Shown in pieces: positions 29,519 to 60,252 of a DNA stretch of 64,000 bases. The notes beneath the pieces were generated by a model. The model saw only the letters and a program-made list of their open reading frames with translations. It had not been told where the DNA came from and made no database searches. The DNA lies in the IMG/VR virus record IMGVR_UViG_3300036802_000003, positions 64,001 to 128,000 of that record; one strand, 5' to 3'. Numbering within the stretch: the first letter of the stretch is position 1; every line of letters begins with the position of its first letter. Origin of the DNA: a virus (Duplodnaviria; Caudoviricetes). The translations under genes were made by a program, and so were the position numbers.

Positions 29519-31375
29519 ATGGAACTGTATATAAACATAAGCAAAGGGATGCACACACTCAACACTGGTAAGCTGACACGTAAGCGTGTAATGGTTAAGG
29601 GGAAGAATGGGAGAACGTTCTATCGTATGCAATGGGTGAATCCATGGGATGCTAGTACTGGTCATGGTGTGAGGGCAATACACAATGGCAAACAGTTAGA
29701 TGAGGCAATACGACATGGCATTACCAGACAGCCTAACCTACAGCAACACCTATCTCATCAAGGTATACACTCAACACTAGACTTAAAGGATAAACTACAC
29801 TTTGACCATCCTCTGTTCTTACCTGAGACAGAGGAATCATCACAAGGGGCAATGTTCTTAGCCAACCATATACAGCATGGTAGTCAGAAGTACCTTGGTA
29901 TGTTTGATAACGACATCTACCAACACTCCAGAGAGATGAGCAAGATAGATGACATAACAGGTATGGAAGAGGCTGAACGCATGAGTTCACTAGGGGCTAA
30001 GCTACCTAGCTCTTTCCTTGAGACCTTAGATGAAGGCTCAACAGTGGATATAGGCTGGTCTGTATCTAAGATGAATGGTGCTGATATGGACAGAGCCAAG
30101 GAGTTAGCTAAGATGACCTATGGTGAGGACAGTATCCAGTATAATGCCATTAAGGATATGGAGCCAGACCCAGATAAGCAAGAGCAAGGGGAACAGAAGG
30201 TAGAGCATGTAATAGAGCCTAAGGATGAGAAGCCTGCATACGGCACACCAGAGGACTACCGCCCACATTACCATACTCATGATGAGAAGATTAACAACAT
30301 GACTGAGTGGCGTAGGGAAGCCACTGAGAAGGAGATGCAAGGGAAGAACAAAAAGGAAGCAATCACCCAGAGTATAGACTTTGATGAGTTGGAGAGTATG
30401 GATGAGGATACAGTAGCTGACATGCTAGAAGACCAAGACAAGTATGGTGACCTGCATGAGCAACATGAGACAGCAATGAAGCATATGCTTAACAGTCAGC
30501 TAGAGGCTGCTAAGGAGTCAGCTAAGGATGTCTTTGGTGAGCTATCACCTACAGCCATTGAGCATGTGTTCAGCTCACCTGAAGGTAAGTATACTGCTCA
30601 CATATCATCCATTAAGCCTGACATAATGAACTTGGGTATGGGCAAGTATGATGTCAACTGGTCTATGAGTATCAAGCTTAAATCAAAGGATGGATACCAT
30701 GCTGGTAACATCAACCGTACAGTTGGACGTGACCATGATGGTTCACTGGTGGTGCATAACGACTTGCTAGAGGTGGATGAGGACTACCAGAACATAGGCA
30801 TTGCAAGCAATGTGTATAACAGAAGTGAACAGATGTGGAAGCATATGGCAAAGGGCAACAAGGTTAAGATAAGCATATGTGCTAACATCACAGTAGGTGC
30901 TTATGCATGGGCTGACAAGAGCAAGGGCTTTGACTTTGCTGATAGCTATGAGCTAAAGGCTGCTAGGTCTGAGCTTAAGGACTTCATAAGTAACAACAAT
31001 TGGGATGAAGAGGAAGTCATGCAAGCCTGTGGATATGAGAATGTGGATGAGCTAGAGCATGCTTGGGAGTTCGCTGAACTGGATGATGGATACAGGTATG
31101 ACCTAACACCACATGCCTTTGAGGATATCAAGGGTGATGCCCACTTGGGCAAGGCATTCATGCTTACTAGTAAGTCCTCATGGGAAGCTGAGAAGCATAT
31201 CAATACTGATGGCAAGGCATACCAAGAGCAACTACGTGATGATAAGGTTGATGACTATCTAGCTGACACAGGGGATGAAGACCTAGACTATCTAGACCTA
31301 GATGATGACATGGATGATATCAGTGATGAAGAGCTAGAGCAATACTCAAGACTAATGGACAAGGAGAAGATGTAG
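29519..31375 (+). CDS. shared-module protein with C-terminal GNAT-like domain (putative head-packaged effector)
   Basis: N-terminal LYINISKG..LNTGKL..RMQW; VDEDYQNIGIA acetyl-CoA-type motif; paralog of 54780-56093. Confidence 0.8.
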   Translation: MELYINISKGMHTLNTGKLTRKRVMVKGKNGRTFYRMQWVNPWDASTGHGVRAIHNGKQLDEAIRHGITRQPNLQQHLSHQGIHSTLDLKDKLHFDHPLFLPETEESSQGAMFLANHIQHGSQKYLGMFDNDIYQHSREMSKIDDITGMEEAERMSSLGAKLPSSFLETLDEGSTVDIGWSVSKMNGADMDRAKELAKMTYGEDSIQYNAIKDMEPDPDKQEQGEQKVEHVIEPKDEKPAYGTPEDYRPHYHTHDEKINNMTEWRREATEKEMQGKNKKEAITQSIDFDELESMDEDTVADMLEDQDKYGDLHEQHETAMKHMLNSQLEAAKESAKDVFGELSPTAIEHVFSSPEGKYTAHISSIKPDIMNLGMGKYDVNWSMSIKLKSKDGYHAGNINRTVGRDHDGSLVVHNDLLEVDEDYQNIGIASNVYNRSEQMWKHMAKGNKVKISICANITVGAYAWADKSKGFDFADSYELKAARSELKDFISNNNWDEEEVMQACGYENVDELEHAWEFAELDDGYRYDLTPHAFEDIKGDAHLGKAFMLTSKSSWEAEKHINTDGKAYQEQLRDDKVDDYLADTGDEDLDYLDLDDDMDDISDEELEQYSRLMDKEKM

Positions 31376-31540
31376 ATGAGTGATAAACTGAGACAGTTCA
31401 CAAGTGTTAAGCCTAAGCATAAGATTGAGGGCACAGAGGGATTAATCAAGACTAAGGATGGCAAGACAATAAGAGATGACAGCTGGCTCCACCCTAGTGC
31501 TGGAGTGAAGAGGAAGAACCCAGAGGTACGGGGTGGGTAG
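31376..31540 (+). CDS. 54-aa basic peptide (not in ORF track), homolog of the N-terminus of 56065-59325
   Basis: AAGGAG RBS; MSDKLR...GTEGL...DDSWLHP. Confidence 0.7.
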   Translation: MSDKLRQFTSVKPKHKIEGTEGLIKTKDGKTIRDDSWLHPSAGVKRKNPEVRGG

Positions 31541-31760
31541 GCACCACCCCCCCCTATCTCTAACCCCCACCCCCTAAAGTTTTCTTTTTTGCCGTAGGTA
31601 GGAGTCCCGTTTCCTTTGGGAGTCTCACACCTGCCCCAACCCGACCGCCTTACACACCAACTTGTATCTTTTCGCATCCCCACATCACCCCCTACCCCCG
31701 ACACTCCCCAATATACCCCCACCCACCTTTTCTAACCCCCCCCACCCTTATTTTCACCCT
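31541..31760. other. C-rich non-coding tract (G-runs on minus strand)
   Basis: More than ten runs of 3-7 C. Confidence 0.75.
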
Positions 31761-31842
31761 ATAAAAAAGTACGTCACCTCCTTTTTCGTAGAAAAGAAAA
31801 CTTTTTTCTTTCGCATTCTTTTTAGTAAGGAGGGAAGAGAGC

Positions 31843-32187
31843 ATGCCTAACATAAAGTCAGAACCACCTACTCTTAACATTCACGGTATGGATATTCCTA
31901 TAATCATACCTGGCAACATGAGATTTCAGATAAGGAATAGAACTGCCTACTTTGAACTGCATAGGATAATGCTACCTAAGGAGCTTATGGGAGTGCTGAC
32001 CAACCATGTGTGGGCTGAAGGATACTTGAAAGTATTCATCGGTGTAATGTTTGCAGGAGAAGAGTATAACTATATGTCCTATAGAGGTCACATAGGAATT
32101 AGTAGCTACGAAGAGAAATCCGTAGAACGAGATATGTTGGTTCTAGAACATGTTCACTTTGTATTACATTTGATAGGAGGAGAATAA
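31843..32187 (+). CDS. tandem paralog array member 1
   Basis: LNIHGMDIP...IMLP. Confidence 0.8.
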   Translation: MPNIKSEPPTLNIHGMDIPIIIPGNMRFQIRNRTAYFELHRIMLPKELMGVLTNHVWAEGYLKVFIGVMFAGEEYNYMSYRGHIGISSYEEKSVERDMLVLEHVHFVLHLIGGE

Positions 32188-32188
32188 A

Positions 32189-32539
32189 ATGGGAATTACT
32201 GTTACTGATAAGAGTAGTCTTACTATTAAAGGCGTAGAGATAGACCACGAGGGGTTAAGGCTGGAAATGGCACCAAATGGAGGGGCTATTATCCATGTCA
32301 AGTCTATAACCTTACCTGAGGGGGACTGGAACCGCATACGAGAAAGTAAGACAGAGGTCTCTGCTATGCATACTAAGACTGTAGTTACTGACGGTAGCAA
32401 AGGGAGCACTTCTATAGCAAACAGAGCATTTACAGGTAAATTAGCTTCTGCTAGCTACTACTCAAAGCATACATCTGATTACATGGACGTTATCGGAGGG
32501 GTTACTCTTCGAGTTAATCCTAGTTGGGTGGTGGAGTAA
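32189..32539 (+). CDS. tandem paralog array member 2
   Basis: LTIKGVEIDH...ITLP. Confidence 0.8.
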   Translation: MGITVTDKSSLTIKGVEIDHEGLRLEMAPNGGAIIHVKSITLPEGDWNRIRESKTEVSAMHTKTVVTDGSKGSTSIANRAFTGKLASASYYSKHTSDYMDVIGGVTLRVNPSWVVE

Positions 32540-32877
32540 TGCACGTAACACACAGTGAGCTAACAATTGATGGGCTAGATATACCACACGTGGCTGAAGA
32601 GATGCTGATATCAGGCAAGGTGTTTCACGTACAATTTATGGGGGATGGTGGAGCTAAGGTATTCAACGATAATCTAACTATCCCTACCTACATCTATGAG
32701 AGGCAGGCAGAAGGGTTACCGTTTAAGCTAGTTCGACACTACAACTTTGGTGCCACTACAGGCACTATCACTACACAGGGAATGCTTAGATACATCCACT
32801 GTGAGGACAGTCACAATCCGACAGAAGGTAGTATTCATCTGTCAAAAGCTGTCTTTAGAATAGAGGAGGCACTATAA
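32539..32877 (+). CDS. tandem paralog array member 3
   Basis: LTIDGLDIPH...LTIP. Confidence 0.8.
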   Translation: MHVTHSELTIDGLDIPHVAEEMLISGKVFHVQFMGDGGAKVFNDNLTIPTYIYERQAEGLPFKLVRHYNFGATTGTITTQGMLRYIHCEDSHNPTEGSIHLSKAVFRIEEAL

Positions 32878-33233
32878 TGGAAGTAAGCACGCTAGCAATT
32901 GGTGGGTTTAATATACCCCATACTCAAAAGGCTGATTTGGTATTGGGCAAGCCCTTTTATATTGAAAGAGTACTAGGAGACAGATGGGACATATTCACTC
33001 ATAGTATTACTCTGCCTGCTGGCTTATATGATAAGATAAATGAGCCAGGTGGTCGTCAGCACTTTGCCTTACTACACCAAGCATCTCCAGAGGATAAAGA
33101 GAACTATACCCTGCATCAGGGATTCACTGAATACTGTGCTGCTACTACAGTGGAACGTGACGGAGACAGTGTTCATTTAAAACAAGCACGTTTCCGTATT
33201 ACTCCATACTTAGGGAGGAAAAGTGATGAGTAA
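32877..33233 (+). CDS. tandem paralog array member 4
   Basis: LAIGGFNIPH...ITLP. Confidence 0.8.
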   Translation: MEVSTLAIGGFNIPHTQKADLVLGKPFYIERVLGDRWDIFTHSITLPAGLYDKINEPGGRQHFALLHQASPEDKENYTLHQGFTEYCAATTVERDGDSVHLKQARFRITPYLGRKSDE

Positions 33234-33540
33234 ATCTATTGTCTTGTTTGGTACTACTTCTGTCGTTCACAGGGGATGTTCTGTTGAGGTATTGCCTGAT
33301 GGGGGTGCCTTGGTGAGAGTGGATAGGATGACCATCCCAGCAGACCTATGGAACAAGTCCATTTGTGACAGGGACTTTAGGGTAAAGATAATTCTCTCTA
33401 AGGAGGAACATGTTGTAGGTACATCAGGTATAGTAACTAGTGCAACCTATGACAAGGGAGATGGCATTCAGAACCTAGGAGTAATGAGAAATGTATCCCT
33501 TGGCTTGGCACGAGTGATACAATCAGGAGGTGGCAGATAA
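33226..33540 (+). CDS. tandem paralog array member 5
   Basis: IVLFGTTSVVH...MTIP. Confidence 0.75.
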   Translation: MSKSIVLFGTTSVVHRGCSVEVLPDGGALVRVDRMTIPADLWNKSICDRDFRVKIILSKEEHVVGTSGIVTSATYDKGDGIQNLGVMRNVSLGLARVIQSGGGR

Positions 33541-33890
33541 TGGCTAACCAAGAAGTAGACTTATCCTTCATGCATAGATTTAAGAGAGAAATGGAAGTAG
33601 TACCCTCTAACCTATGGTTGGGAGGGGTAGAAATCAAGCATCAAATGGAGCCACAAATGATAGACCTTAGCAGCCCTTTATCAACACATGTCAGAATAAA
33701 GAGAATGGTTATTCCTACACCAATCATGGATTCTTTTATGAATAATGAGATAGTCAGCTTTAAACTAGAGCACACCAGTAATACTCATGCTTTGGAAGGG
33801 GAATGTTGCTTACACTCCTGCATGGAGGGTCATGCTAGCAACCACTACCGAGCATTAGAAGATGTACTACTAACCGTCAGAGTTAAATGA
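33540..33890 (+). CDS. tandem paralog array member 6
   Basis: LWLGGVEIKH...MVIP. Confidence 0.8.
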   Translation: MANQEVDLSFMHRFKREMEVVPSNLWLGGVEIKHQMEPQMIDLSSPLSTHVRIKRMVIPTPIMDSFMNNEIVSFKLEHTSNTHALEGECCLHSCMEGHASNHYRALEDVLLTVRVK

Positions 33891-33948
33891 TACGAGGGAG
33901 AGGACTTTTGGTCTTCTCCTTCTTTTAATGTGAAGGGAGGGAGAGACG

Positions 33949-34158
33949 ATGAAGAAGGTGGAAAACATAGAGTGGGCTGGACATTGTGCCGAGTGCTTTA
34001 CGTGTGGGGCGTTTGCACCTAATATGAAGGAGTTCCACAAGCAATTAGACAAAGGACATTGGAGTAAGCGTCCATTAGCAGTAAACAATATGAGAATCAG
34101 TCAGCAATATATGCATAACTGTGAGAAAGCAAAGGAGGATAACAATGGGCAATTATAA
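33949..34158 (+). CDS. small Cys/His hypothetical protein
   Basis: GGGAGG RBS; CFTC. Confidence 0.65.
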   Translation: MKKVENIEWAGHCAECFTCGAFAPNMKEFHKQLDKGHWSKRPLAVNNMRISQQYMHNCEKAKEDNNGQL

Positions 34159-34450
34159 AGGAGCGCATCCGTGTCTATACTGGCACTTAAAGCCAGGGTA
34201 TTTCATGTACATGACTTCTGGTGTGAAGAAACAGATTAAGCTATTTGGTATTCCATTATTTAAGGTTAGGAAGTGGGAAATGTTTGAGGTACTAGACACA
34301 TCAGATAAGCGTGATGGCATGATAACAGTGCACGCTAAAGGTACTGAAACTGGCATAGAAATGAAGTTTACTCGTCGTAGCACAGCAGAGACAAGCTATT
34401 ATGTTATAGAGAAAACTGAAATTATTAAGCAAGGAGTGATTGACGTATGA
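34145..34450 (+). CDS. hypothetical protein
   Basis: AAGGAGG RBS before ATG 34145. Confidence 0.75.
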   Translation: MGNYKGAHPCLYWHLKPGYFMYMTSGVKKQIKLFGIPLFKVRKWEMFEVLDTSDKRDGMITVHAKGTETGIEMKFTRRSTAETSYYVIEKTEIIKQGVIDV

Positions 34451-34770
34451 GAAAGTCACTAATAGGCTTGGGAGTGTTTGCTTTACTAATAGCTGGGTGC
34501 TCTACTGGTGCTGAAGCTAAGAAGAAAGAGAAGGAACGTCCTCTAATGAGCTACCGTGATAAGCAGTTTAAGAACGATACTGGTCCAGGGTATACCTTTA
34601 ATAACTGGGTTGTGGACACACGTACAGGTTGCTTAATATCCTCTGTTGCTTGGGGCAAGGATGATTCAGGGATGACACAGGTTTTAGACCCAGAAGGTAA
34701 GCCTGTAGGGTGTTACAAAGCTGGTGGGATGTCTGTAGAAGATTACTTCAACCTACCACAGGATAAATAG
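34447..34770 (+). CDS. lipoprotein
   Basis: Signal peptide with lipobox LIAGC. Confidence 0.8.
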   Translation: MRKSLIGLGVFALLIAGCSTGAEAKKKEKERPLMSYRDKQFKNDTGPGYTFNNWVVDTRTGCLISSVAWGKDDSGMTQVLDPEGKPVGCYKAGGMSVEDYFNLPQDK

Positions 34771-34781
34771 GAGGTAAGGAG

Positions 34782-35045
34782 ATGAGCAGAATCATGACAC
34801 CATTCTTTGGTAAGTGGGATGATAATGAAGACAAGAATACTGTGGAACCTAAAGAACCTAGCCAACCTAGAAAGCATGTAAATATGTCAGAGAAGGACTT
34901 CAGGGTATCAGTATTAAAAGGTCTTGTAGCAATTGAGCATGCAATTCGTACTGGTAATAGACACTACTGGGCAAGTGATATGGAGATGGCAGTGCGCATG
35001 GCACAGTCTATGAGGGAGGATGATGGTAATGAACAAGGCAGTTAA
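34782..35045 (+). CDS. hypothetical protein
   Basis: ORF with RBS. Confidence 0.7.
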   Translation: MSRIMTPFFGKWDDNEDKNTVEPKEPSQPRKHVNMSEKDFRVSVLKGLVAIEHAIRTGNRHYWASDMEMAVRMAQSMREDDGNEQGS

Positions 35046-35340
35046 GGTACTGGAAGCTCTTATGTATGGTATTGATGTGAAGATGGATGGTCATGAATTA
35101 GTCTACTCTAGGGAGCATGAAGGGGTATTCATTAAGGGTGAGAAGTTTGAGCATGGTCAATTAGTCGAGCAAGGCAAAGGTACTCCAGTGCTACTAAATG
35201 CCGACTTTGACCTTAACTATTTCATTCGTAAGTGTGAAGAGATGCCTGACCATGAGATACTAGGTATCTGTGGCAGTCTTGCACTTACTAAACAGGTTCA
35301 TGCTAAGAGGAAGCCTAGGAAGGGGGTAGGGGATGAATAA
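35020..35340 (+). CDS. hypothetical protein
   Basis: ORF with RBS. Confidence 0.7.
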   Translation: MMVMNKAVKVLEALMYGIDVKMDGHELVYSREHEGVFIKGEKFEHGQLVEQGKGTPVLLNADFDLNYFIRKCEEMPDHEILGICGSLALTKQVHAKRKPRKGVGDE

Positions 35341-35463
35341 GGTAACTATTGCCTACTTTGTTGTAGTTGCTGTACTGGTTTGTGCCTTCTTCTACTGCAT
35401 GGGCAGGTCAGATGGTAACATGGAAATGTATCATAAACTGGTAGAGGAAGGGCTGATAAAGGA

Positions 35464-35661
35464 ATGAAGTACTTCTGGGGTGGTTTTGCTGGTGCTTTCT
35501 TGTGTGTAATCGTTAGCTTGGGAACGTGGTCAGTATTAGATTCTCTGTATGATAAAGGCTATGACAAAGGCGTTAAGGTAGGCATCGAGCAAGGCAAGAA
35601 GGATGCTATGAAAGACATTGAACTTAGCTACGATATGTGTGTTAAGAAGAAAGGGGAGTAA
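35464..35661 (+). CDS. small membrane protein
   Basis: N-terminal TM helix; GxxxG repeats. Confidence 0.7.
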   Translation: MKYFWGGFAGAFLCVIVSLGTWSVLDSLYDKGYDKGVKVGIEQGKKDAMKDIELSYDMCVKKKGE

Positions 35662-35664
35662 CAC

Positions 35665-35970
35665 ATGCAGGTAATATTTGCATTAGCTTTAGCTGCCTGT
35701 ATAGGCATGACATACTTCACAGACAACATGGCAGTCATAACCCTAGTTATTATTATTAACAGTATCTTTGCTCTGTTTGTGCTGAAAAATGAGGATTTAG
35801 CCTACCCTTCCACGTTCCTGTTAGTTACAGGGATAGTGGTTGGTCTGGTTGGAATGTGCCTAGCAATTATACTAGGCAATTACTATCTCATAGTTCTTGC
35901 ACTACCTTGGAGCGGTCTAGTAGTAAGTAGCTTTATACTAATGTTTAAAGAAGATAGGAGTGAATGGTAA
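35665..35970 (+). CDS. multi-TM membrane protein
   Basis: About four hydrophobic segments. Confidence 0.75.
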   Translation: MQVIFALALAACIGMTYFTDNMAVITLVIIINSIFALFVLKNEDLAYPSTFLLVTGIVVGLVGMCLAIILGNYYLIVLALPWSGLVVSSFILMFKEDRSEW

Positions 35971-36239
35971 TGAGAACAATGGACATGAAAATAGTAGATG
36001 AAAATGGGGTACTGGTAAACAAGCATAGTGATGGAGGTGACCATTATGGATGGGAAAACCCATTAGCTTTTGTACCAAGAGAAGGTGAGCTATTGACTCA
36101 TAAGAGATTTAGTCGAGAAGGAACTGGAGAGGAAAAGACCTACCGAGTTATTCGGGTGGTATATCACACTGAAGAAGATTATAACCATTCTTATAAGGGT
36201 TGGGTTGAGATTCGGGTTAGTGAGGTGACAGGAGCATGA
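35964..36239 (+). CDS. hypothetical protein
   Basis: ORF. Confidence 0.7.
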   Translation: MVMRTMDMKIVDENGVLVNKHSDGGDHYGWENPLAFVPREGELLTHKRFSREGTGEEKTYRVIRVVYHTEEDYNHSYKGWVEIRVSEVTGA

Positions 36240-36589
36240 AGCCATTCCTAGGTGAGGAGTTTCATCTAGATAAGAATACAGCTATCACGATGCTTGGAAT
36301 TAGCCTAAGGTTTTCATCTCGTATGCAACCTGTATATACTAATGGAATCAACGCTGAACCCCCTAGACAGGTTGACAGTCTTGATGGTCATATAAAGATA
36401 CAACAACGTAGTAAGGGTAACGAGGAGGTATGTAGGATATTTGGTAGTGCTCCACGTAGACGCTCTCATCTAGATGTACACGATATATCTATCCGTGAGC
36501 TTCCTTGGGAGCTACAAGAAAAGCTAGTAAATACCTGGGCTGAAGTGGAGAAGTACTTAAAAGATAGGACTAAGAAGGAGGAAGATTAA
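36236..36589 (+). CDS. hypothetical protein
   Basis: ATGA coupling. Confidence 0.7.
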   Translation: MKPFLGEEFHLDKNTAITMLGISLRFSSRMQPVYTNGINAEPPRQVDSLDGHIKIQQRSKGNEEVCRIFGSAPRRRSHLDVHDISIRELPWELQEKLVNTWAEVEKYLKDRTKKEED

Positions 36590-36822
36590 TGCTGATAGCA
36601 AGACTGACTCTACTATTCACTATTCTTGGTATGATGGGTGGAGCAATATATTTATTTACTCAAGGAGGTATAGGGTACTTCTTTGGCGCTATCTTGATGA
36701 TAGTAGCAGCCTACTTTGCAGAGGACTTCTATACTGATGAGAGCAAGAAGCCAGTCATGGTTACTATTGACCCTAAGGGCGACTGGAAACCAGTAAAAGG
36801 AGATGACACAAAATGGAAATAA
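36589..36822 (+). CDS. membrane protein, 2 TM
   Basis: Hydrophobic hairpin. Confidence 0.7.
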   Translation: MLIARLTLLFTILGMMGGAIYLFTQGGIGYFFGAILMIVAAYFAEDFYTDESKKPVMVTIDPKGDWKPVKGDDTKWK

Positions 36823-37130
36823 GAATCCCAGTTAAGAAAGAACCAGTTAGTAGCACCCCTTTACCAGAGAGGGTTGGAACTATAATAGTAGATGAAGATA
36901 CTGGACAAGCTTATCTGTTGGCAGTAAACCCTGCCGACCAAAACACTCCATACTTGGCTAGTTTGTACGGAGATAAGTACTGGACTATACAGAGAACTCA
37001 TTCTGAACCATGTGAACAGTTGTGTTACGGAGATATTGAGAATACTCTAGGAACTCCTGAAATCACACTATACACAACAGAAGAATACGTTTTAGACTTG
37101 GTAGCAAAGAAAAGACAAAAGCGCTCTTAG
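36813..37130 (+). CDS. hypothetical protein, paralog of 37218-37499
   Basis: GTIIVD..YLL..IExxLGT..T.EEY.L.LV. Confidence 0.75.
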   Translation: MEIRIPVKKEPVSSTPLPERVGTIIVDEDTGQAYLLAVNPADQNTPYLASLYGDKYWTIQRTHSEPCEQLCYGDIENTLGTPEITLYTTEEYVLDLVAKKRQKRS

Positions 37131-37217
37131 GAGTGCTTTTTCTTTTTGTATGAGACTTTTTCCATATAAAGGAAATTAATAATTGCTGGACGATACTTAA
37201 TTAAGGGAGCGGATTGT

Positions 37218-37499
37218 ATGCAAGTGATTGCACCTAAAGAAACTGTTGTGTCTCAGATTCCTATTGGTAGTGTTATTATTGACAGTGCTGGGTTCGAATA
37301 TCTTTTAACTGGACGTATGGCTGAAGAGGTTGGGGAGTATGATAAAGCTGTCCTACATAGATTCAGTGGTCAAGGTCGCCATGAGTGGGGTCATGACCTA
37401 TCTAAGCCTGTAGCTCCTGAAGAGATAGAAGGGGCACTGGGTACCAGCTTCAAAGTATTCACTCCAGATGAGTATATGTTACAGTTAGTTAAGAAATAG
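37218..37499 (+). CDS. hypothetical protein, paralog of 36813-37130
   Basis: GSVIID..YLL..IExxLGT..T.DEY.L.LV. Confidence 0.75.
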   Translation: MQVIAPKETVVSQIPIGSVIIDSAGFEYLLTGRMAEEVGEYDKAVLHRFSGQGRHEWGHDLSKPVAPEEIEGALGTSFKVFTPDEYMLQLVKK

Positions 37500-37584
37500 A
37501 CCCCTAGTGGGTCTTTTTCTATGATATGACCTGTGCATTGAGGATACGAATTTTATACTTGATTACGAAAAAGGAGGTATTCTC

Positions 37585-37782
37585 ATGCCAAAACCATATC
37601 CTGGTTCTAAGTATATTCCTGGTTTAGGAAAGAGTGTCAAAATCATGGGTAACGAGATTGATGTACCAAGTGTGAAAACTGCCTTAGGTTTAGGTGGCAC
37701 ACCTGCTAAAATCCTTCCTACTGACATTGACATGGCTAAGCTATTAGTTGAACTGGACAAGACTTACACTCGTAAGCCATAA
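37585..37782 (+). CDS. small hypothetical protein, apparently monocistronic
   Basis: AAAGGAGG RBS; flanked by terminator hairpins. Confidence 0.75.
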   Translation: MPKPYPGSKYIPGLGKSVKIMGNEIDVPSVKTALGLGGTPAKILPTDIDMAKLLVELDKTYTRKP

Positions 37783-37789
37783 GCCACTT

Positions 37790-37820
37790 AAAAAGACTAC
37801 TCTTAAGAGTAGTCTTTTTT
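37790..37820 (+). terminator. bidirectional terminator
   Basis: AAAAAGACTACTC-TTAA-GAGTAGTCTTTTTT. Confidence 0.8.
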
Positions 37821-37894
37821 ATTTTTAAGTATAAAAGAGAAAAGTTTTAAAAGGTTAATTATTTAATTTTGAATTTAAAGGAGGTATTTTTAAT

Positions 37895-38050
37895 ATGAAA
37901 AGTAATAAAGAAATTAAAAGACCTACCCTAAATAGCATTAGAGAAGAACTTGGTATGAAACGTATAGATTTAAAAGAAGTTCAGTTAGTACAGTCTTACA
38001 GTGACCACATTAAGAATTTAAATTTAAACCTACCAGAGAGAAGAAATTAA
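37895..38050 (+). CDS. 51-aa hypothetical protein (not in ORF track)
   Basis: AAAGGAGG RBS; MKSNKEIKRPTLNSIREELGMKRI... Confidence 0.6.
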   Translation: MKSNKEIKRPTLNSIREELGMKRIDLKEVQLVQSYSDHIKNLNLNLPERRN

Positions 38051-38095
38051 GCTCTCTGGTTTTTTCATTTTGAAAGCCCAAAGGAGGAATGATTT

Positions 38096-38473
38096 ATGAA
38101 TCCAAACTATCCATTTAATGACAGTGCAGACAGAGTGTGGGGTTGTATTAACTACAAGAATTATAACAACGGTGTATGGGTTATTACTATCGAGTACAAA
38201 GAGTTAGAAGAGTCAAAGGGTAACCGATTAGCAGTAACTTTAGGGACTAAAGCAGAAACAATTAACTATATTGCCAGCCTATCCATACCAGTTGAAAGCC
38301 CTGCAACTATAACAAGTATTGTTCATATTCAGAACAATGGTGCCATCTTCCGTTATGCACTTACTATTGATGACGAAACAAACACATTTGGCTTACTGGA
38401 GACAACAAGATTATCATGTGCAACTACTTCAGTAAGACCTACTGCACCAAGAAATCCTAACAAGAATGACTGA
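38096..38473 (+). CDS. hypothetical protein
   Basis: AAAGGAGG RBS. Confidence 0.75.
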   Translation: MNPNYPFNDSADRVWGCINYKNYNNGVWVITIEYKELEESKGNRLAVTLGTKAETINYIASLSIPVESPATITSIVHIQNNGAIFRYALTIDDETNTFGLLETTRLSCATTSVRPTAPRNPNKND

Positions 38474-38654
38474 ATAACAGGAGAGACAGAAATGATAGAC
38501 AAAATAATCCTACTAGTAATCGGACTAGTGACGTTAACATCAGGAATAGTAATGAGTTACTTTGATACAGGTTTAGCAAGAGCAATCGGCATACTGATTG
38601 TAGCTTGCTGCCTGTGTCTTTTTGCAATCACCATACTGTATGGGTGGGGTAAAC

Positions 38655-39311
38655 GTGAAAGAAAATGAGATGTATAAGTATGTTAAAGAGCTACTTGAAG
38701 GCATTGGCTACGATGTCTATGCCGAGGTGGAAGTTAATTCTTGGGGTGGTAGTGGTAGAGCTGACGTAATTGGTTACAACAAGCCTGCCGTATGTATCGT
38801 GGAGATGAAGACTTCTCTGTCTATGGAACTGATTGAGCAAGCGTATAAGTGGAAGCGTTTTGGTCATTACATCTATATTGCCATACCTAAACGTAAGAAG
38901 CAAATACCCACATTTGTGTGTAACATGCTGTCTAGTATGGGAATTGGCATCATAGAGGTCGGTGACCGTGTGTGGGGTACACGCATAGTGCTGAAAGCTA
39001 AGTTCAACAGACCCTATAAGAATACTAAATGGGATGATGTATTGAAACCCGAACACCAGACATGGCTAGAAGGTGGCTCAAGTGGTGGGGGGTATGTAAC
39101 CAACTACAAGCTGACTATAGATAGGGTGAAGAGGTATCTAAAGTCGAAGAAGAGTTGGATTTCTATGAACGAAATACTAGAGCATTGTGAAACGCACTAC
39201 TCTAACCCTAAGAACTCCCTAGCAAAGGCTCTTAGGGAGTTTGAATCGAATTGGTGTGAGACAAAGGTAATAGACAGAAGAGTACACTTTAAATACAAGG
39301 AGGGTAAATAA
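38655..39311 (+). CDS. PD-(D/E)xK nuclease-fold protein
   Basis: E...RADVIG...IVEMKT...EQA motif. Confidence 0.75.
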   Translation: MKENEMYKYVKELLEGIGYDVYAEVEVNSWGGSGRADVIGYNKPAVCIVEMKTSLSMELIEQAYKWKRFGHYIYIAIPKRKKQIPTFVCNMLSSMGIGIIEVGDRVWGTRIVLKAKFNRPYKNTKWDDVLKPEHQTWLEGGSSGGGYVTNYKLTIDRVKRYLKSKKSWISMNEILEHCETHYSNPKNSLAKALREFESNWCETKVIDRRVHFKYKEGK

Positions 39312-39511
39312 TGGCTGGACTTACCGTAACTCTTAGCCCTGCTGAGATTAAAGAAATACTTATTAAGCACTTGAAAGAGGAATATCCTAGCCTGACTATT
39401 AAAGATGTTGACTTTAATGTAGACAAGCAACTAGAAGGCTATGGAATGCAGGAACATTATGTAACAAGATTTAATGGTGCTACTTGTAGCCTAAGAAAGG
39501 GGAATGCATAA
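39311..39511 (+). CDS. hypothetical protein
   Basis: TAATG coupling. Confidence 0.7.
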   Translation: MAGLTVTLSPAEIKEILIKHLKEEYPSLTIKDVDFNVDKQLEGYGMQEHYVTRFNGATCSLRKGNA

Positions 39512-40014: not shown

Positions 40015-40084
40015 ACACTGAGGGGAGGAATTTCGATTCTTCCTCTTTTATTTTTGTGAAGACGTTGAGAAGGAGGAATCAGTA

Positions 40085-53782: not shown

Positions 53783-53979
53783 TTACACTTTTAGTGTTAT
53801 GTATAGGATTATTTTTAGGTGCAGGTGCAATTTTGGTGTTAACAGGTATACAAATAAAGGGAGACAGTGAGTACATTGTTAACTTTACAATCGTGTGTAT
53901 TCTCTTCATAGTGTTCTGGTTGTCCCTTGGGGGTATAATTCAGAGCATAGTATATTTAATCACAGGGAGGTTTATATAA
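53779..53979 (+). CDS. membrane protein, 2 TM
   Basis: Two hydrophobic segments. Confidence 0.7.
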   Translation: MITLLVLCIGLFLGAGAILVLTGIQIKGDSEYIVNFTIVCILFIVFWLSLGGIIQSIVYLITGRFI

Positions 53980-54194
53980 TGGCTTTTACGATTTTAAAAT
54001 GGAATTCTAAGTACGGTGGAGACGCTAAGTTTGTGGTGAGAGATGATGATACAGGTAAGCAGAGCTTATTTACTCCAGGTAGGGCACAGGACGTAATATT
54101 CACTAATACTGATATCTCTAATTCCCCAGAGATTAGTAAGTGGGAAGATTTTGGCAACGAAACAGTAGACAATCTTGAGGACGTAGCATTCTAA
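53979..54194 (+). CDS. hypothetical protein
   Basis: GGGAGG RBS, TAATG coupling. Confidence 0.7.
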   Translation: MAFTILKWNSKYGGDAKFVVRDDDTGKQSLFTPGRAQDVIFTNTDISNSPEISKWEDFGNETVDNLEDVAF

Positions 54195-54715
54195 TGAAGA
54201 ATAGCTATGAGGTGAGAGGGGATGTAACTGCTATCTTTCTTAAGAAGAAGGATGGCACGGTTTTAGAGACTCTGATTGATACCTCTGATTTAGAATTTGT
54301 AGGTTCTATACGTGGAACATGGTATGCTAACTGGGATAAAACCATACAAGGATATTATGTGAAAGCAGGAATCTCTAGAGATGGTACAGTGAAGAAGATA
54401 CCCTTACACAGATTTATAATGGGTGAACCAAAAGGACTTACCATAGACCATAGGAACCATGATACTCTTAATAACACTAAAAATAACCTAAGACCACTCA
54501 CTTCCAAACAGAATCAACAAAATAGGAAGAGGGTTAGTAATAGGAACACTAGTGGAGAGCGTGGGGTTTCTTGGCACAAAAGAGACCAGAAATGGATAGG
54601 TCAGGTAGTAGTTGATGGAGTTAGGCATTGGATAGGTGGCTTCGAGGATAAGCAAGAGTGTATAGAAGCTGTCAGAAAGGCAAGAAAAGAGCTACTACCA
54701 TATTCCACAAACTAG
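54194..54715 (+). CDS. HNH-AP2 homing endonuclease
   Basis: LHRFIM..IDHRNHDTLNNTKNNLR..NQQN; NTSGERGVSWHKRDQKW AP2 domain. Confidence 0.92.
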   Translation: MKNSYEVRGDVTAIFLKKKDGTVLETLIDTSDLEFVGSIRGTWYANWDKTIQGYYVKAGISRDGTVKKIPLHRFIMGEPKGLTIDHRNHDTLNNTKNNLRPLTSKQNQQNRKRVSNRNTSGERGVSWHKRDQKWIGQVVVDGVRHWIGGFEDKQECIEAVRKARKELLPYSTN

Positions 54716-54779
54716 GTATAAGCAGAGCATAGACGCTCTGCTTATTTTTATTTAAAGAGAAGTCTGGAGGTGGGTTAAA

Positions 54780-56093
54780 TTGGAACTAATAATAGACGTA
54801 TCCAAGGCAAGAGTACTTAACACAGGTAAGCTAGTCAAACGTGCGGTACAGGTAAAAGGACAGGGTGGTAGAACATTCACTCGTATGCAATGGATAAATC
54901 CTGATAAAGGTAAACCAGTAATGGAGACATCACATGAAGGACATGAAGACCCTCATGCACATAGAGTAGCTAGTATGAGTCCTGAACAGAAGCATTCTAT
55001 GGTTAATCACTTTGTATCTAATAATAGGGATGAAGCGAATGACCTAGCAATGACTACAGGACAGAAGAGAGCACCTTATGTAGCAGACCATCAGGTTGCC
55101 CAGCACTTAATGGATCATGCACACAAGATACCCCATGAATACGTGAAAGACCACTTAGACAGTAAAGAGTCAAAGCCTAGTCTAAATGTAGTGGGAAGTG
55201 ACCTTCCAGAGAAGGAAGTTAACAAGCGTATGGGTAAGGAAGGTAGCTTAGACTTGTCCAAACTCAATACAGGGGCTTCAATGTATGATGATGACATCTT
55301 TAAAGAAGATACAGAGTATGCCCAAGATGAAGGTCTTAACCCAGAGAAGGAATTTAGGCATGTATTCAAAGACGTTACTAAAGCTGGTATTGAGAATGTA
55401 TTTTCTGACCCTAAGGGTAACTGGACTGCACAGGTATCAGGTTATGACCTATTCCAGGATGGGGATAACGTGAACTGTGGCTTAAACATGACCCTATACG
55501 ACAAGGATGGGGAGAAGATGGGACACATCATACGTTCAGCTTACCATGATGCAGATGGTACTCTACAGATACACAATGATGAGATGGAGTTAAAGACACA
55601 GTATCATGGTAAAGGGGTAGCACAAACTATATACGACAGGTCTGAGCAATTATGGAGACACCTATCAGGTGGACATAAAGTAGAGATAAATCTGACAGCC
55701 AATATTAGTGTTGGTGCCTATGCGTGGTCTAAGAAAGGCTTTGATTTTGCTAATGACAAGGAGTTAAAGATGGCTAGGGAAGAACTGAAACACTTCTGTA
55801 GAGGTAACGATATTAGTCTAGCGGATGTGCTCAAAAAGAGTGGATACAAGGGTATAGATGACCTCAACCACTCATGGCAGTTCTCTACACTACAGAATGG
55901 TAAATCTTATGAACTTGACAAAGTTATAGACCCTAAATATAAAAAGGATGTTGAGGGTAGAGAAGGTCATTTTGGTAAGGCTTTCATGCTAGGCGGATTG
56001 GGTATATGGGACGGTAAAAAGACACTAAACGATGACCATTCTTCAGAAAAAGTAGGTGAAATACATGGCAGAGCAACTAAAAAGAACAGCTAG
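54780..56093 (+). CDS. shared-module protein with C-terminal GNAT-like domain
   Basis: LIIDVSKA..LNTGKL..RMQW; QYHGKGVA; ANISVGAYAW; paralog of 29519-31375. Confidence 0.85.
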   Translation: MELIIDVSKARVLNTGKLVKRAVQVKGQGGRTFTRMQWINPDKGKPVMETSHEGHEDPHAHRVASMSPEQKHSMVNHFVSNNRDEANDLAMTTGQKRAPYVADHQVAQHLMDHAHKIPHEYVKDHLDSKESKPSLNVVGSDLPEKEVNKRMGKEGSLDLSKLNTGASMYDDDIFKEDTEYAQDEGLNPEKEFRHVFKDVTKAGIENVFSDPKGNWTAQVSGYDLFQDGDNVNCGLNMTLYDKDGEKMGHIIRSAYHDADGTLQIHNDEMELKTQYHGKGVAQTIYDRSEQLWRHLSGGHKVEINLTANISVGAYAWSKKGFDFANDKELKMAREELKHFCRGNDISLADVLKKSGYKGIDDLNHSWQFSTLQNGKSYELDKVIDPKYKKDVEGREGHFGKAFMLGGLGIWDGKKTLNDDHSSEKVGEIHGRATKKNS

Positions 56094-59000
56094 AAAAGTA
56101 CCTCCTTACCGTCACGGTAGAGAAGGTATGAGTAGTGAAGGTGATGCTTGGATGCATCCAGAAGTGTTTGATGACGATTACGAACGAAAAACGAATTCTG
56201 ACATAAGACGTTATATGGGTTCTCTGACGAAATCCAATCGTTTGGTTGTTGACATTAACAAGGCTGAAGCACCGAAAACTGGTAGGTCTTTGAATAGAGG
56301 AAAATTGGTCAAGAGAGCGGTACAAGTAAAAGGGAAAGATGGTAAGATGTTCACTCGTATGCAATGGGTAGACCCGAATGATGACCACCAAATACAATCA
56401 CACCCTCTACACCAAGAGCCTTCACTGGAGGGTACTAAGCCTACTTCTTCTAAAGACCCTAGTGAGATGTCACGAGAAGAATACGTAGACCATCACGTTC
56501 GTAAGAAAATGTCTAAAGAAGAGAAGTACGATATGCTAGAGAAACATGGTGTCGAGTGGAAGCGAAATAACCATGAAGCTATTGACCATAAGAATGCTGT
56601 AATGGCTCTTAAAAACCATCTATTAAAGAATCCTCACCTTATTGGTGCACACAACAATAAGGAAGCAAAGGATATTGAGAAGCCAATAACAGGTACAGAT
56701 GATGAGAATGAGTTTTGGAATATGTGGGATAAGGCTGACAGAGAGGGTTCATATGAGCTTATGCGTAAGCTGGGTATCATCGACAAGGATGAGCAAGACC
56801 CTAGATTCGACCCTAATGTAAAGGAAAATATGAAGCCTATTAAACATTTACTGAATGTTACTCGTTTGAAGAAGCATCTACGTGAGAATAGACATCTCAT
56901 GACTGACCCTGAGTATCTTCCTACAAAGGATACAAATGCAACTAAGGCTGCTAAAAAGCAATTAGAAGATAAGAAACAAGGTATTAAGCCATCTCCTGCA
57001 CAAGCAGGTGGTAATGATGTCCACACTATTTTAGCTAATATGCCAAGGGAACAGTTGTATAAGCTGATGAAGGATGCAGGTGTATCAGATGAAGACCCAC
57101 TTATCACAGGAGATAAGATGGCAGGGGTTAAGCACCACCTTAATATGATTAAGTTCAAGAAGCACCTAGAACAACACCCTGAAATACTAACTCACAATCC
57201 TGATGGTTCTCTTACAGAAGGTGAGAAGGAACGTATTGCTTCCCTACCTGAAGAGGCTAAAGAACGTGACCGTATTAAGAGCTTTGTGTCTGATATGTCT
57301 CAAGAGGACGTAGAGGATGCACTAGACAAATACGCTGACCATGATGCAGTTAAGAGCAGGATTAAATCTGACCATGAGGGTATTAACAGTATGCATGCAA
57401 AGGGTGCTCTAGTTAAAGTATTCTCTGAAGATAAGGAAAGAATGAAACCTTATCAAAAAGAGGTAAGTGCTGACAGACTAATGAAGATGCGTATTGGTAA
57501 TAAGGTTATGGGTAAATTCCTACGTCATGCATTTGGCTTCAAGGGTATAGGAGACCTAAAAAGACCTGAAGACGATGAGTTCCGTACTACAGAGTGGCAA
57601 TGGCATGGTAATGGTGGTAGTGGCTCTGCTATGATGGAGAAGAACGATGATGGAGATGCAGTACTAACTGTTATAGACTATGGGGAAGATGGTCAAGGGT
57701 GGAACGAATTCCAAGTCCCTCTACAGGAGGTTAAGGACTTTGTAGACGATTTGAGAAAAGGGAACGAACAAAAGAAAAAGGTTGAGCAGAAGGAAGTTCC
57801 CCTACAGAAGAAGCCAGCAGACCAGATAGAAAAAGCCCTAAACGAGAGTTTCGAAAAGAACTACACTCCAGAGGTTGGAGAGGTCATGAAGTCCCACTTT
57901 ACTAAACTGTGGAATAATGCAGACCGCTCTGGAAAGATTAGTGACATCGTGAAGAAGTCTATGAATATGACTAAGGGTACTATGAGGAACTTACTTAAAG
58001 AATGGGGTGTTCCAGTCTCCCCTACAGGAGATATTATCAAGACTAATGACCCTAACTTCAAGTCCATGGTATTCAAGGATGAGATTCAGGATAAGAAGTC
58101 TAAGAGTGCTATGGATTACCTTAAAGCAGCAGACATAGGAGTAGACCGCAAAGCTACACCTGATGCTCCCTATGACCCTTATGTACTACACGAATCAGCT
58201 AAGAACTGGACAGAAGGAGAGAAGGCACAGGCACGTAAGGAGCTATTAAAGAATGCAATTCATGTTAAGACTGGTATCACACATGAAGACCATGACAAAC
58301 GTATAGCAAAACTTACAGACCACCTTCACTCATCTACAACTCATATTCCATTTGACTTGATGAGTCACCTAATGGCAAATGGTATGAAAGTTAAGTTCTC
58401 TGATGTAGATGCTCACGGTAATGCTCATACAGGGGCTAACTATAATGGTAAGGACAATGCTATTTATCTTGACTCTCAATACTATCATGATAAGTCTGTA
58501 TTCAAAGACCACCCACATGACCACATACCAGAGAAGACAGAACATCCTACTATCAAGGGAGCTAAATACGGTCACTGGAGTATAGGCGAGAATATGGTGC
58601 ATGAATCTGCCCACGCTATTGACAGATTCCTAAGTGGTGGGGATTCCTACTTAAACTGGGATAAAGGTCAAGGTACTACTTATGCTAAAGACCATTTAAA
58701 TACTGTTCCTGAACATTATAAGAAGAAAGTTGAACAGTCTAACCCTGATAAGGAGATTAGATATAGCAAGGAAGGAAAGTATTTTTATGTTTTAGATGAG
58801 TGGATGTCCAACTATGAAGGACGTGTCTACGGGGAGTACCAAAAGCTAAATCCTGATTATGTTCACTCTGACAATGATACAGGTAAGATGTATGATAAGA
58901 AGTTCCAAGGTGTGGAAGGTATGCATGGTACTGAACACTGGGCTGAATCGGTAGCAGGTTATGGTAATGCTATTCACTCTTACCAACGTTGGAAAGATAT

Positions 59001-59325
59001 GAATCCAGGTAATAAGTCTACATCCATGGATGAGTGGGCTGAACAGATGCATAAGCAGTATTCACAAAAGGGCTTTGGTACAGCTAATGCAGAAGGTCAA
59101 AACTATAAAGCTGGTACAAGCACTAGACCAATGGAATCTTATGGATGGCAATACCACACAATGAAACAACACTATCCTGAACTATTTGGTGCAATGCAGT
59201 CCATCTTTAATAGACCCGACTTTTTAGGAAGTAAGGGACAGAGCCGAACAGAGTCAATCCAGCATGGAAACTCAGCTAAGAAATCTCTAGGCTTATTCGT
59301 TGATTTGGGAGGGAGCAAGGCATGA
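56065..59325 (+). CDS. shared-module protein with helical repeats and C-terminal zincin metallopeptidase-like domain
   Basis: LVVDINKA..LNRGKL..RMQW; MVHESAHAID; distal EHWAES. Confidence 0.85.
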   Translation: MAEQLKRTARKVPPYRHGREGMSSEGDAWMHPEVFDDDYERKTNSDIRRYMGSLTKSNRLVVDINKAEAPKTGRSLNRGKLVKRAVQVKGKDGKMFTRMQWVDPNDDHQIQSHPLHQEPSLEGTKPTSSKDPSEMSREEYVDHHVRKKMSKEEKYDMLEKHGVEWKRNNHEAIDHKNAVMALKNHLLKNPHLIGAHNNKEAKDIEKPITGTDDENEFWNMWDKADREGSYELMRKLGIIDKDEQDPRFDPNVKENMKPIKHLLNVTRLKKHLRENRHLMTDPEYLPTKDTNATKAAKKQLEDKKQGIKPSPAQAGGNDVHTILANMPREQLYKLMKDAGVSDEDPLITGDKMAGVKHHLNMIKFKKHLEQHPEILTHNPDGSLTEGEKERIASLPEEAKERDRIKSFVSDMSQEDVEDALDKYADHDAVKSRIKSDHEGINSMHAKGALVKVFSEDKERMKPYQKEVSADRLMKMRIGNKVMGKFLRHAFGFKGIGDLKRPEDDEFRTTEWQWHGNGGSGSAMMEKNDDGDAVLTVIDYGEDGQGWNEFQVPLQEVKDFVDDLRKGNEQKKKVEQKEVPLQKKPADQIEKALNESFEKNYTPEVGEVMKSHFTKLWNNADRSGKISDIVKKSMNMTKGTMRNLLKEWGVPVSPTGDIIKTNDPNFKSMVFKDEIQDKKSKSAMDYLKAADIGVDRKATPDAPYDPYVLHESAKNWTEGEKAQARKELLKNAIHVKTGITHEDHDKRIAKLTDHLHSSTTHIPFDLMSHLMANGMKVKFSDVDAHGNAHTGANYNGKDNAIYLDSQYYHDKSVFKDHPHDHIPEKTEHPTIKGAKYGHWSIGENMVHESAHAIDRFLSGGDSYLNWDKGQGTTYAKDHLNTVPEHYKKKVEQSNPDKEIRYSKEGKYFYVLDEWMSNYEGRVYGEYQKLNPDYVHSDNDTGKMYDKKFQGVEGMHGTEHWAESVAGYGNAIHSYQRWKDMNPGNKSTSMDEWAEQMHKQYSQKGFGTANAEGQNYKAGTSTRPMESYGWQYHTMKQHYPELFGAMQSIFNRPDFLGSKGQSRTESIQHGNSAKKSLGLFVDLGGSKA

Positions 59326-59699
59326 AGGTAGTTATTCACAAAGACGGAAAATTAGGTACGGTAAAATATAGTAAAGATGGTCAAGCTATGGTGAGCCACC
59401 CTGATGCTAAGGTTAGGAAGGATGTAAAGGACTACTTGGATACTGAACGAGAGTTTACTGTAGCAAACCCTAATACAGACCCTGATGTAGTTGGTTCTAG
59501 GAGGAAGCTTTATGCTTCCCCTAAAGCCAATGAAGATACAATGTCTATGGCTTTGTGTGAGATGTTCCACCATACAGGGGTGCATGTAGACTGGTCTGGC
59601 AAGTTATCTAAGGATTTCTTAGGACAGAAGGACAAGAACAGTAAGACAGATAAGCCTATTGAAAAATCAACAGTAGACGATTTCGATATTATAAACTAG
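59322..59699 (+). CDS. small protein coupled to the metallopeptidase gene (candidate partner)
   Basis: ATGA overlap; C-terminal IEKS. Confidence 0.75.
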   Translation: MKVVIHKDGKLGTVKYSKDGQAMVSHPDAKVRKDVKDYLDTEREFTVANPNTDPDVVGSRRKLYASPKANEDTMSMALCEMFHHTGVHVDWSGKLSKDFLGQKDKNSKTDKPIEKSTVDDFDIIN

Positions 59700-59709
59700 G
59701 AGGGCTAAC

Positions 59710-60252
59710 ATGAACGATGACACTTTGTTGGTAATATCGCCCAAGCTTATGGACATCCAGAAGGGTAAGAGTGACCGTAATGGATTAGTACAACAGATAC
59801 TAACATATGTACGAGATGGTAGAACAATAACTCGTAAACAGTGGGTACGTAGTGAGTTTGCAGACCACGCTAAGAAAAATGAGGAAGAAAAGAAAGACGT
59901 ACTATTACGTGAGCAAGAAAGGGAAAGACGTAAGGAAGCTAAGAAGAATGATGAACAGAATGCGAAAATGGCTACTCAAGATAAACGAGCACGTAAAAAG
60001 AAGGTAAAAGAGAAGGAAAAGATGGAAGGACATGGGGAAGGTACTAAGCATGTTATCCATGTAGGGGAATACGCTAAGAAGCTAGCAGACCAAAAGAAAA
60101 AGCGTATGCAGGAAGAGAAGGATAAGAAGCATAAGCAACAAGGCGATAAGAAGAAGGATAACAAGAAGAAGGATAAACATGGCTCCTTTGGACAGGCTAA
60201 ACAGACCAGAGAAGATAATAAAGCAAGTGACAATATGTCTCTTGGTAAGTAG
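59710..60252 (+). CDS. Lys-rich protein with a diverged shared module
   Basis: IQKG..GLVQQILTYVRDGRTITRKQW; highly basic C-half. Confidence 0.8.
   Translation: MNDDTLLVISPKLMDIQKGKSDRNGLVQQILTYVRDGRTITRKQWVRSEFADHAKKNEEEKKDVLLREQERERRKEAKKNDEQNAKMATQDKRARKKKVKEKEKMEGHGEGTKHVIHVGEYAKKLADQKKKRMQEEKDKKHKQQGDKKKDNKKKDKHGSFGQAKQTREDNKASDNMSLGK

Follow-up and report, generated by a model that had tools for sequence, protein, structure and literature searches.

Five proteins encoded in the head-gene region of a Bacillus myophage share a basic module of about 40 residues, each copy directly preceded by a short lysine-containing motif that recurs in head proteins of the same phage, and the reading we favour on balance is that the five are effectors of the polyvalent-protein kind, processed by the prohead protease, packaged in the head and injected. 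The window analysed is a stretch of 64,000 nucleotides, bases 64001-128000 of IMG/VR virus record IMGVR_UViG_3300036802_000003 (139,244 bases in total). Its DNA is 86-90% identical to that of Bacillus phages CP-51, JL and Shanette, which belong to the genus Siminovitchvirus (SPO1-like family Herelleviridae), and it comes from a Bacillus myophage of the CP-51/JL/Shanette type. Support for the favoured reading comes indirectly, from the location of the members in the head cluster, the site that they have in common with head proteins, the variety of their cargos and the occurrence of one such cargo on a MuF protein.

A conserved basic hairpin in five proteins

Translation of the window revealed a basic module of ~40-42 residues in four open reading frames (ORFs), at 29519-29650, 42322-42444, 54780-54905 and 56239-56382. 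We call the corresponding proteins P1 (29495-31375, with an alternative start at 29519), P2 (41674-44508), P3 (54780-56093) and P4 (56056-59325, with a probable ATG at 56065); their module cores lie at 29558-29644, 42352-42438, 54816-54902 and 56290-56376, respectively. A profile built from these four copies matched only the same four in a six-frame translation of the window (E 5e-31 to 1e-27), followed by the ORF at 59710 (E 0.012) and a next-best match at E 0.7. A profile of 158 family copies raised the copy in the 59710 ORF to E 1.3e-6 and found the module in exactly five ORFs of the whole 139-kb genome. This fifth protein, P5 (59710-60252), carries a diverged module at approximately 59779-59847; all five genes and modules are on the plus strand. 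The ~55 N-terminal residues of P5 are 66-71% identical to SPO1 gp5.3, which alone among the SPO1 ORFs gave a match to the four-copy profile (E 6e-5), and both genes lie directly 5' of the portal gene. An earlier note on this DNA had described the module in four large dispersed proteins and a diverged copy in a fifth; translations and profile searches bear out both statements, the diverged form being common to SPO1 gp5.3.

The four strong copies are 62-83% identical in residues and only 59-72% identical in nucleotides, with different codons at about half of the identical residues. The low base identity and differing codons indicate that the likeness of the copies has been kept by selection on the protein. 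Recent gene conversion, considered as another cause of this likeness, was ruled out by codon usage. The module is internal in P2 and stands ~60 residues from the protein start in P4, and its net charge is +6 to +8. In an AlphaFold model of P3, residues 1-15 form a disordered leader and the module is a lone hairpin, with strands at residues 19-26 and 32-40 and predicted local distance difference test scores (pLDDT) of 53-73, as would be expected for a part that folds on a partner.

The four-copy profile, compared with 1.84 billion cluster representatives, matched 183 proteins at E <= 1e-3, of which 68 reached E <= 1e-10; the 183 protein clusters all seem to be of phage or metagenomic origin. 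Gly30 and Trp38 never vary in 158 aligned copies, for which a rough consensus reads E-L-Y-I-D-L-x-K-[AGS], then a variable stretch of 0-8 residues, then L-N-T-x-K-L-V-K-K-x-V-Q-V-[KR]-G-K-N-G-K-x-F-T-R-M-Q-W-V-D-P. The module starts within the first 15 residues in 70 of these copies, at residues 16-130 in 65 and deeper in 23. A second subfamily, with the consensus L-x-K-A-M-N-K-A-G-L-V-Q-K-E-V-Q-V-K-G-K-N-G-Q-T-F-T-R-K-Q-W-V, bridges to the type found in P5 and gp5.3. The strong form is restricted, among phages with sequenced genomes, to CP-51, JL, Shanette, S4-1 and Exiguobacterium phage vB_EalM-132, each of which has three or four copies. A scan of representative genomes from 185,579 species of bacteria and archaea did not find the module and ruled out a prophage or cellular origin. 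Pfam, NCBIfam and PADLOC searches returned no named family for it, and no Pfam LPD model matches it; the Protein Data Bank (PDB), queried by sequence with both the module profile and SPO1 gp5.3, yielded no significant match, and an ESM Atlas search with the module gave no usable match. The earlier note had not recognised the module as a named family and had proposed a profile search with tabulation of the fused domains; the outcome, 183 clusters with varied cargos and no already characterised domain, agrees with that assessment.

A candidate maturation site before the module

Every module copy in the window is directly preceded by the motif [DN]-[ILVM]-[NSQ]-K-[AGS]. With a slash marking the putative cut, the strand and site read ELYINISK/G in P1 (Lys codon 29543-29545) and ELIIDVSK/A in P3 (54804-54806), and the sites read LVLDINK/A in P2 (42343-42345), LVVDINK/A in P4 (56260-56262) and LMDIQK/G in P5 (59761-59763), all on the plus strand. 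This strict motif occurs 11 times in the window, always on the plus strand, and 14 times in the genome, compared to 2.4 ± 1.4 expected from 200 residue shuffles (maximum 8). Nine of the 14 occurrences are in P1-P5 and in the portal, protease, scaffold and capsid proteins, all near N-termini or just before the module; the other five fall in unrelated genes. The enrichment is confined to the strict motif, as the full strand-plus-site pattern was not enriched genome-wide (8 observed, 3.2 expected). The N-terminal motifs of the head proteins are TDLSK/S in the portal protein (residue 27), DADIQK/S in the protease (residue 16), DADINK/S in the scaffold (residue 11) and DNLNK/A in the capsid protein (residue 22), with a predicted capsid cut at K24/A25. 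The resemblance that the earlier note saw between the hydrophobic-x-K[AG] before the modules and the capsid LNKA is thus real, the motif being present at the capsid N-terminus as LNK/A.

Two Staphylococcus-phage capsid chains in the PDB bear on the position of the cut. Chain 5lii_P has 463 residues, and chain 9row_B has 439 and is without the first 24 residues of 5lii_P. Residue 1 of 9row_B is residue 25 of 5lii_P, just after D-V-V-K, and in the alignment this column corresponds to K24/A25 of the window capsid. These deposits are indirect evidence that the prohead protease of the family cuts after the capsid Lys, a position deduced from the aligned Staphylococcus-phage chains rather than from the N-terminus of the protein of this phage. 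We found no published N-terminus for a Herelleviridae capsid protein in the literature, and the cut position is therefore taken from the two PDB deposits.

The same site rule recurs in an independent lineage, represented by loci L040, L049 and L053 and by the complete 116-kb phage G006, where the sites are LNK/A in the capsid, [IV]-x-K/S in the protease, [IL]-[NS]-K/S in the scaffold and L-x-K/[AG] in the module proteins. Of the 158 family copies, 134 have K-[AGS] in the same profile column. A cassette of hydrophobic strand plus site was found 122 times in family proteins; 104 of these cassettes abut the module, and 11 of the remaining 18 directly precede a ParB domain. These placements indicate that the cassette marks domain junctions and can occur without the module. 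P1, P3 and most family members begin with a leader of ~9 residues (8-10) followed by the site, and the family alignment contains no conserved second site after the module. Because the module lies downstream of the cut and is followed by no such site, it would stay on the mature cargo.

Three further observations concern this type of site. P2 orthologues P0012, P0013, P0036, P0092 and P0103 have a second cassette, L-x-I-D-L-x-K/A-D-N-x-H-L-P, directly before the first ParB domain; most P2 orthologues have it, and in the window P2 it has decayed to ELIIK/SD (41833-41847). The extreme C-terminus of P4 (59290-59322), L-G-L-F-V-D-L-G-G-S-K-A, resembles the strand before the module, and its homologues end alike. 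Residues 157-215 of the protease (62459-62635) are 35% identical to the capsid N-terminal arm (63608-63800; E 8e-13), a likeness that includes the motif (VEK/ALSAGY and LNK/ALSAGH, respectively) and is also seen in relatives. Mimicry of the capsid N-terminal arm may be how the protease gains access to the prohead, where it may afterwards be cut at a site of this type.

A different division of labour among packaged proteins has, in our view, a low but appreciable probability: the hydrophobic strand and site would be the loading and cutting signal, and the hairpin would bring the enzymes, after injection, to a shared host target such as DNA, RNA or the ribosome surface. The position of the module downstream of the cut with no conserved second site, the existence of strand-plus-site cassettes without the module directly before ParB domains, the presence of the site without the module in capsid, scaffold and protease, and the strongly positive charge of the hairpin are all consistent with this alternative, as is a weak, non-significant likeness of the hairpin to the RNA-binding tail of ribosomal protein L27a (E 0.58). 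However, gp5.3 and P5 have the module and no enzyme, which fits a structural or loading role better than the targeting of a catalytic domain, and across Bacillus and Exiguobacterium phages the module is better conserved than any cargo, which argues for a phage partner or DNA rather than a host protein.

Cargo domains, their variety and gene order

Behind the module, the five members carry different C-terminal parts. P1 has an acidic middle part and then a GNAT-like domain paralogous to that of P3; it matches PHROG 27103 from residue 26 and, on its C-terminal domain, PHROG 4611 ('minor head protein'). In P3 the middle part is helical, and the domain at the C-terminus has a GNAT fold, its HGKGVA starting at 55605. 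The AlphaFold model of P3, made from 24 sequences, has a mean pLDDT of 83, mostly >85 over residues 210-437, and all top Foldseek rows for the C-terminal domain are GNAT acetyltransferases (probability up to 1.00, E 3e-3). HGKGVA and QNIGIA stand at the expected acyl-CoA-binding loop of the P1 and P3 domains. Pfam GNAT models do not match either C-terminus; on the modelled fold, both are predicted GNAT-fold acyltransferases.

P2 has, ahead of its site and module, a first ParB-like domain with DGHHR at 42124-42141 (residue 151), which matches PHROG 26754 (E 1e-55) and scores 19.4 bits with Pfam ParB_N, under the 26.3 cut-off, and, behind the module, a second that reads EGHHL. Three helical repeats follow, and then DUF3626 (PF12294; 31.8 bits, cut-off 27, profile positions 2-117 of 301), which the orthologues match too. 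In P4, helical repeats precede a zincin-like peptidase domain (58306-59322) with HESAH at 58600-58614; among 27 homologues HExxH is invariant and an Asp three residues later nearly so. The model of the 339 C-terminal residues has a pLDDT of 89.9 and, in VIA, matched zincin peptidases, most closely a lethal-factor catalytic domain (Z 9.7, root-mean-square deviation 3.5, 155 residues aligned) and the Pro-Pro endopeptidase PPEP-2 (Z 8.7); Foldseek alone gave weak matches, and no Pfam model matched the domain. The modelled domain has a zincin fold with HExxH and a downstream metal ligand, and may be M34-like. P5 has a long K/E-rich tail behind its diverged module and no enzyme domain. No MuF (PF04233) or minor-capsid-2 domain was matched in P1-P5 by Pfam at E 0.1. 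By fold, Pfam and sequence, these C-termini are as the earlier note described them: two GNAT-like domains, a DUF3626-like domain, an HExxH peptidase and a basic tract. Separately, a helical unit of ~45 residues, G-[IV]-x-W-K ... [IL]-N-W-M-R, occurs three times in P2 (residues ~420-700) and three to four times in P4 (~150-420); it matches no family, and in the second subfamily nothing else apart from the module is conserved.

We sorted 154 retrieved family proteins by what flanks or follows the module. GNAT-like domains accounted for 31, the zincin architecture for 27, ParB with DUF3626 for 13, and shuffled or fused forms, such as ParB-module-GNAT or a P1-like plus P2-like ORF with two modules, for eight; 61 carry cargos unlike the enzymes of the window, in about ten sequence clusters, and 14 are short fragments. 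The variation of cargos that the earlier note envisaged is seen only across the wider family; within the phage group the members are a stable orthologous set. One relative, P0131 (1502 residues), is organised as module, ART-PolyVal, module, InPase, DUF5661, DUF6582 and LPD1, and is a polyvalent protein of the textbook kind, in which two enzymatic domains each have a module ahead of them. Two metagenomic proteins, P0009 (1480 residues) and P0018 (1430 residues), are in-frame fusions of P1-like and P2-like proteins with two modules; unless they are artefacts of assembly or gene calling, they link the two TerL-adjacent genes functionally.

The metagenomic fusions P0009, P0018 and P0131, with one module before each domain block, and the nearly constant adjacency of module and site are what would be expected if the module were a docking element by which the prohead protease splits multidomain precursors, with no part in loading or delivery. 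We regard this possibility as highly improbable, given that the sites in capsid, scaffold and protease, as well as those preceding ParB domains, have no module beside them, and that the part that would be removed from most family members is only 8-10 residues, which leaves nothing to split.

The GNAT cargo of P1 and P3 recurs at the C-terminus of a 667-residue protein of Bacillus siphophage PBC5 (30% identity, E 3e-26). The N-terminal half of that protein is a MuF / minor capsid protein 2 domain, and its gene is the second after that for the large terminase subunit (TerL). Variable effector domains are a known feature of MuF proteins, which belong to the head. The same enzyme thus stands behind an established head anchor in PBC5, a B. 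cereus phage, and behind the module in a second phage of this host. These observations bear on the proposal that the members are not packaged at all and act as late intracellular enzymes or assembly helpers, with the module an ordinary nucleic-acid- or protein-binding domain and the likeness to the capsid site meaningless. Database records list the members as hypothetical rather than structural, five strict motifs do lie in unrelated genes, and SPO1-like head clusters also hold non-structural genes such as those for PhoH and ribonucleotide reductase. We nevertheless consider such a purely intracellular role improbable, as nine of the 14 motifs are in head proteins and members when 2.4 were expected overall, the motif keeps its exact place before the module in the large majority of copies noted above, the GNAT cargo is fused to MuF in PBC5, and P0131 has hallmark polyvalent-protein domains.

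The gene order of the region is as follows, with all genes on the plus strand. TerL (27838-29514; PHROG 675, E 1e-193) overlaps the start of P1 with its 3' end. P3 and P4 are followed by a conserved 125-residue gene without the module (59322-59699; PHROG 26403), by P5, and by the genes for the portal protein (60343-61932), the prohead, or head maturation, protease (61991-62755; PHROG 1028, E 4e-113), the scaffolding protein (62769-63590; PHROG 15087) and the major capsid protein (63608-64000, continuing past the window end), which is 88% like SPO1 Gp6.1. Three members thus precede the portal gene and one is at TerL, the positions given by the earlier note, with P1 overlapping the TerL end. The interval between TerL and the head block also contains ~10 kb of small ORFs, a sigma-like gene, PhoH and an HNH endonuclease. 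The orders P3-P4-(125-residue gene)-P5-portal-protease-scaffold-capsid and TerL-P1-P2 are kept in vB_EalM-132 and in IMG/VR contigs at 35-55% protein identity. The 125-residue gene is syntenic in L040 and in phage EalM-132, and in L040 TerL lies inside the block, between P4 and that gene. A distant lineage, with a TerL 50% identical, has three to four module proteins and an SNF2-type helicase after TerL and two more module proteins before the portal gene. In locus L054 of this lineage the SNF2-type helicase domain (4606-6741; PHROG 62, E 1e-74) is encoded right after TerL, is like those of giant polyvalent proteins and lacks the module.

A terminator-like hairpin with an 11-bp stem and a T run is located at 54718-54745 on the plus strand, directly 5' of P3, and no comparable plus-strand site was found after it up to the window end. 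The window contained no match to the SPO1 late-promoter consensus, and a sigma-70 scan of it gave background level only; because these promoter scans gave no signal, the expression class of the members is read from gene order. Two features of the neighbourhood stand apart. The stretch 31843-41485, ~10 kb with some 30 small ORFs, sits between P1 and P2, whose genes are adjacent in phage vB_EalM-132 and in IMG/VR loci L028 and L047; the Shanette record marks a repeat region in the homologous interval, and the block may be a terminal redundancy carrying early genes. The segment 54000-54745, including an HNH endonuclease ORF (54194-54715), has no counterpart in CP-51, JL or Shanette, whose DNA match begins at ~54746; the terminator-like hairpin comes after this ORF, and the HNH endonuclease gene upstream of P3 is probably a mobile insertion.

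A proposed route through the head and known systems

We infer cleavage, encapsidation, ejection and a binding partner for the hairpin as parts of a single route. The five members would be made together with the head proteins and built into the prohead, where the prohead protease would cut them after the Lys of [LIV]-x-[LIV]-[DN]-[LIV]-x-K/[AGS], at sites like those where trimming of the capsid protein, scaffold and protease seems to occur. Cleavage would take off a short hydrophobic leader or, in P2, the entire upstream ParB domain, leaving the basic beta-hairpin at the new N-terminus of each cargo with a flexible linker between them. The cargos would then remain in the filled head, exit with the DNA at infection and act early in the host, as proposed for polyvalent proteins. 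As the module is more conserved than any cargo, is basic, and is enzyme-free in gp5.3 and P5, its partner is likely to be something constant inside the head; our leading guess is that the hairpin binds a conserved head protein during assembly and later the packaged DNA, or one of the two.

Several points weigh against packaging and injection of the members. The portal motif is not kept in all relatives, and the predicted cleavage site is drawn from one pair of PDB deposits together with motif enrichment. The CP-51, JL and Shanette records list the member genes as hypothetical, and members of 944 and 1089 residues are large for passage through the tail. A retained basic hairpin would suit a role after injection equally well, and the presence of the members in the virion is predicted here from their genes.

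The nearest analogue for the leader is in T4, where an N-terminal leader of ~9-10 residues, ending at a prohead-protease site, is found on head-loaded injected proteins, including Alt, with unrelated cargos. T4 gp21 cuts after Glu, and the T4 cargos share no conserved domain after the cut. The proteins described here resemble this capsid targeting sequence in having a short leader that ends at a putative prohead-protease site and is common to unrelated cargos; they differ in that the site follows Lys and can be internal, and in that a basic hairpin of 30 residues would be retained. The T4 parallel drawn in the earlier note is corrected in one respect by this comparison: the module lies downstream of the cut and would be kept, and it is the short hydrophobic strand ending at the Lys that corresponds better to the T4 peptide. 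As in MuF / SPP1 gp7 proteins, one head-associated N-terminal element is combined with interchangeable C-terminal enzymes, although the module is ~40 residues long rather than 100-300, is coupled to a cleavage site and is present in several copies in one genome.

The members fit the already described polyvalent-protein concept. Like polyvalent proteins (Iyer et al. 2017, PMC5512222), they are large, late-encoded, next to virion genes and predicted to be packaged, injected and proteolytically processed, and they share with them a zincin with HExxH and Asp, ParB-like and GNAT domains and, in relatives, ART-PolyVal, InPase and LPD1. The zincin with HExxH and Asp is a described, widespread phage-type polyvalent peptidase (PMC5512222), which P4 matches. 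Unlike in polyvalent proteins, the repertoire is split over four to five genes, each with its own hairpin module and prohead-protease-type site, and the prohead protease, not the zincin domain, is the predicted processing enzyme; the window represents a split form in that P1, P3 and P5 each have a single cargo. We found no mention of a comparable module in the main text of PMC5512222. DdrB of bacteriophage P1 combines a ParB-like domain with a zincin peptidase, is processed and is carried in the head (PMC5512222), whereas in the window ParB and zincin are on separate proteins and the packaging signal is different; the members have no sequence relation to the Dar head proteins of that phage. 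SPO1 gp5.3, the P5 orthologue, has the same site, a diverged module and a place directly before the portal gene, and is the single member in SPO1, which has none of the enzyme-bearing ones. As far as could be found, the literature holds no characterisation of gp5.3.

A broader proposal, possible but more tentative than packaging itself, is that leader, site and basic hairpin form a self-sufficient, portable cassette for head loading and delivery in SPO1-like phages, previously unnamed, with gp5.3 as its ancestral enzyme-free member. If so, any protein placed behind the cassette would end up in the capsid, be cut by the prohead protease, stay on the DNA through the hairpin and be injected, and phages of Gram-positive hosts would have in this cassette a natural equivalent of the T4 targeting peptide. 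How injected head proteins are chosen for loading in phages other than T4 is largely unknown, and the many predicted polyvalent effectors have had no defined loading signal. A module found in 183 clusters and tied to a maturation site offers a concrete handle on this question and could explain how SPO1-like phages deliver early enzymes. It predicts that the Herelleviridae prohead protease cuts after Lys and before Ala, Gly or Ser, would give SPO1 gp5.3 a role, and could serve to load foreign proteins into Bacillus phage capsids.

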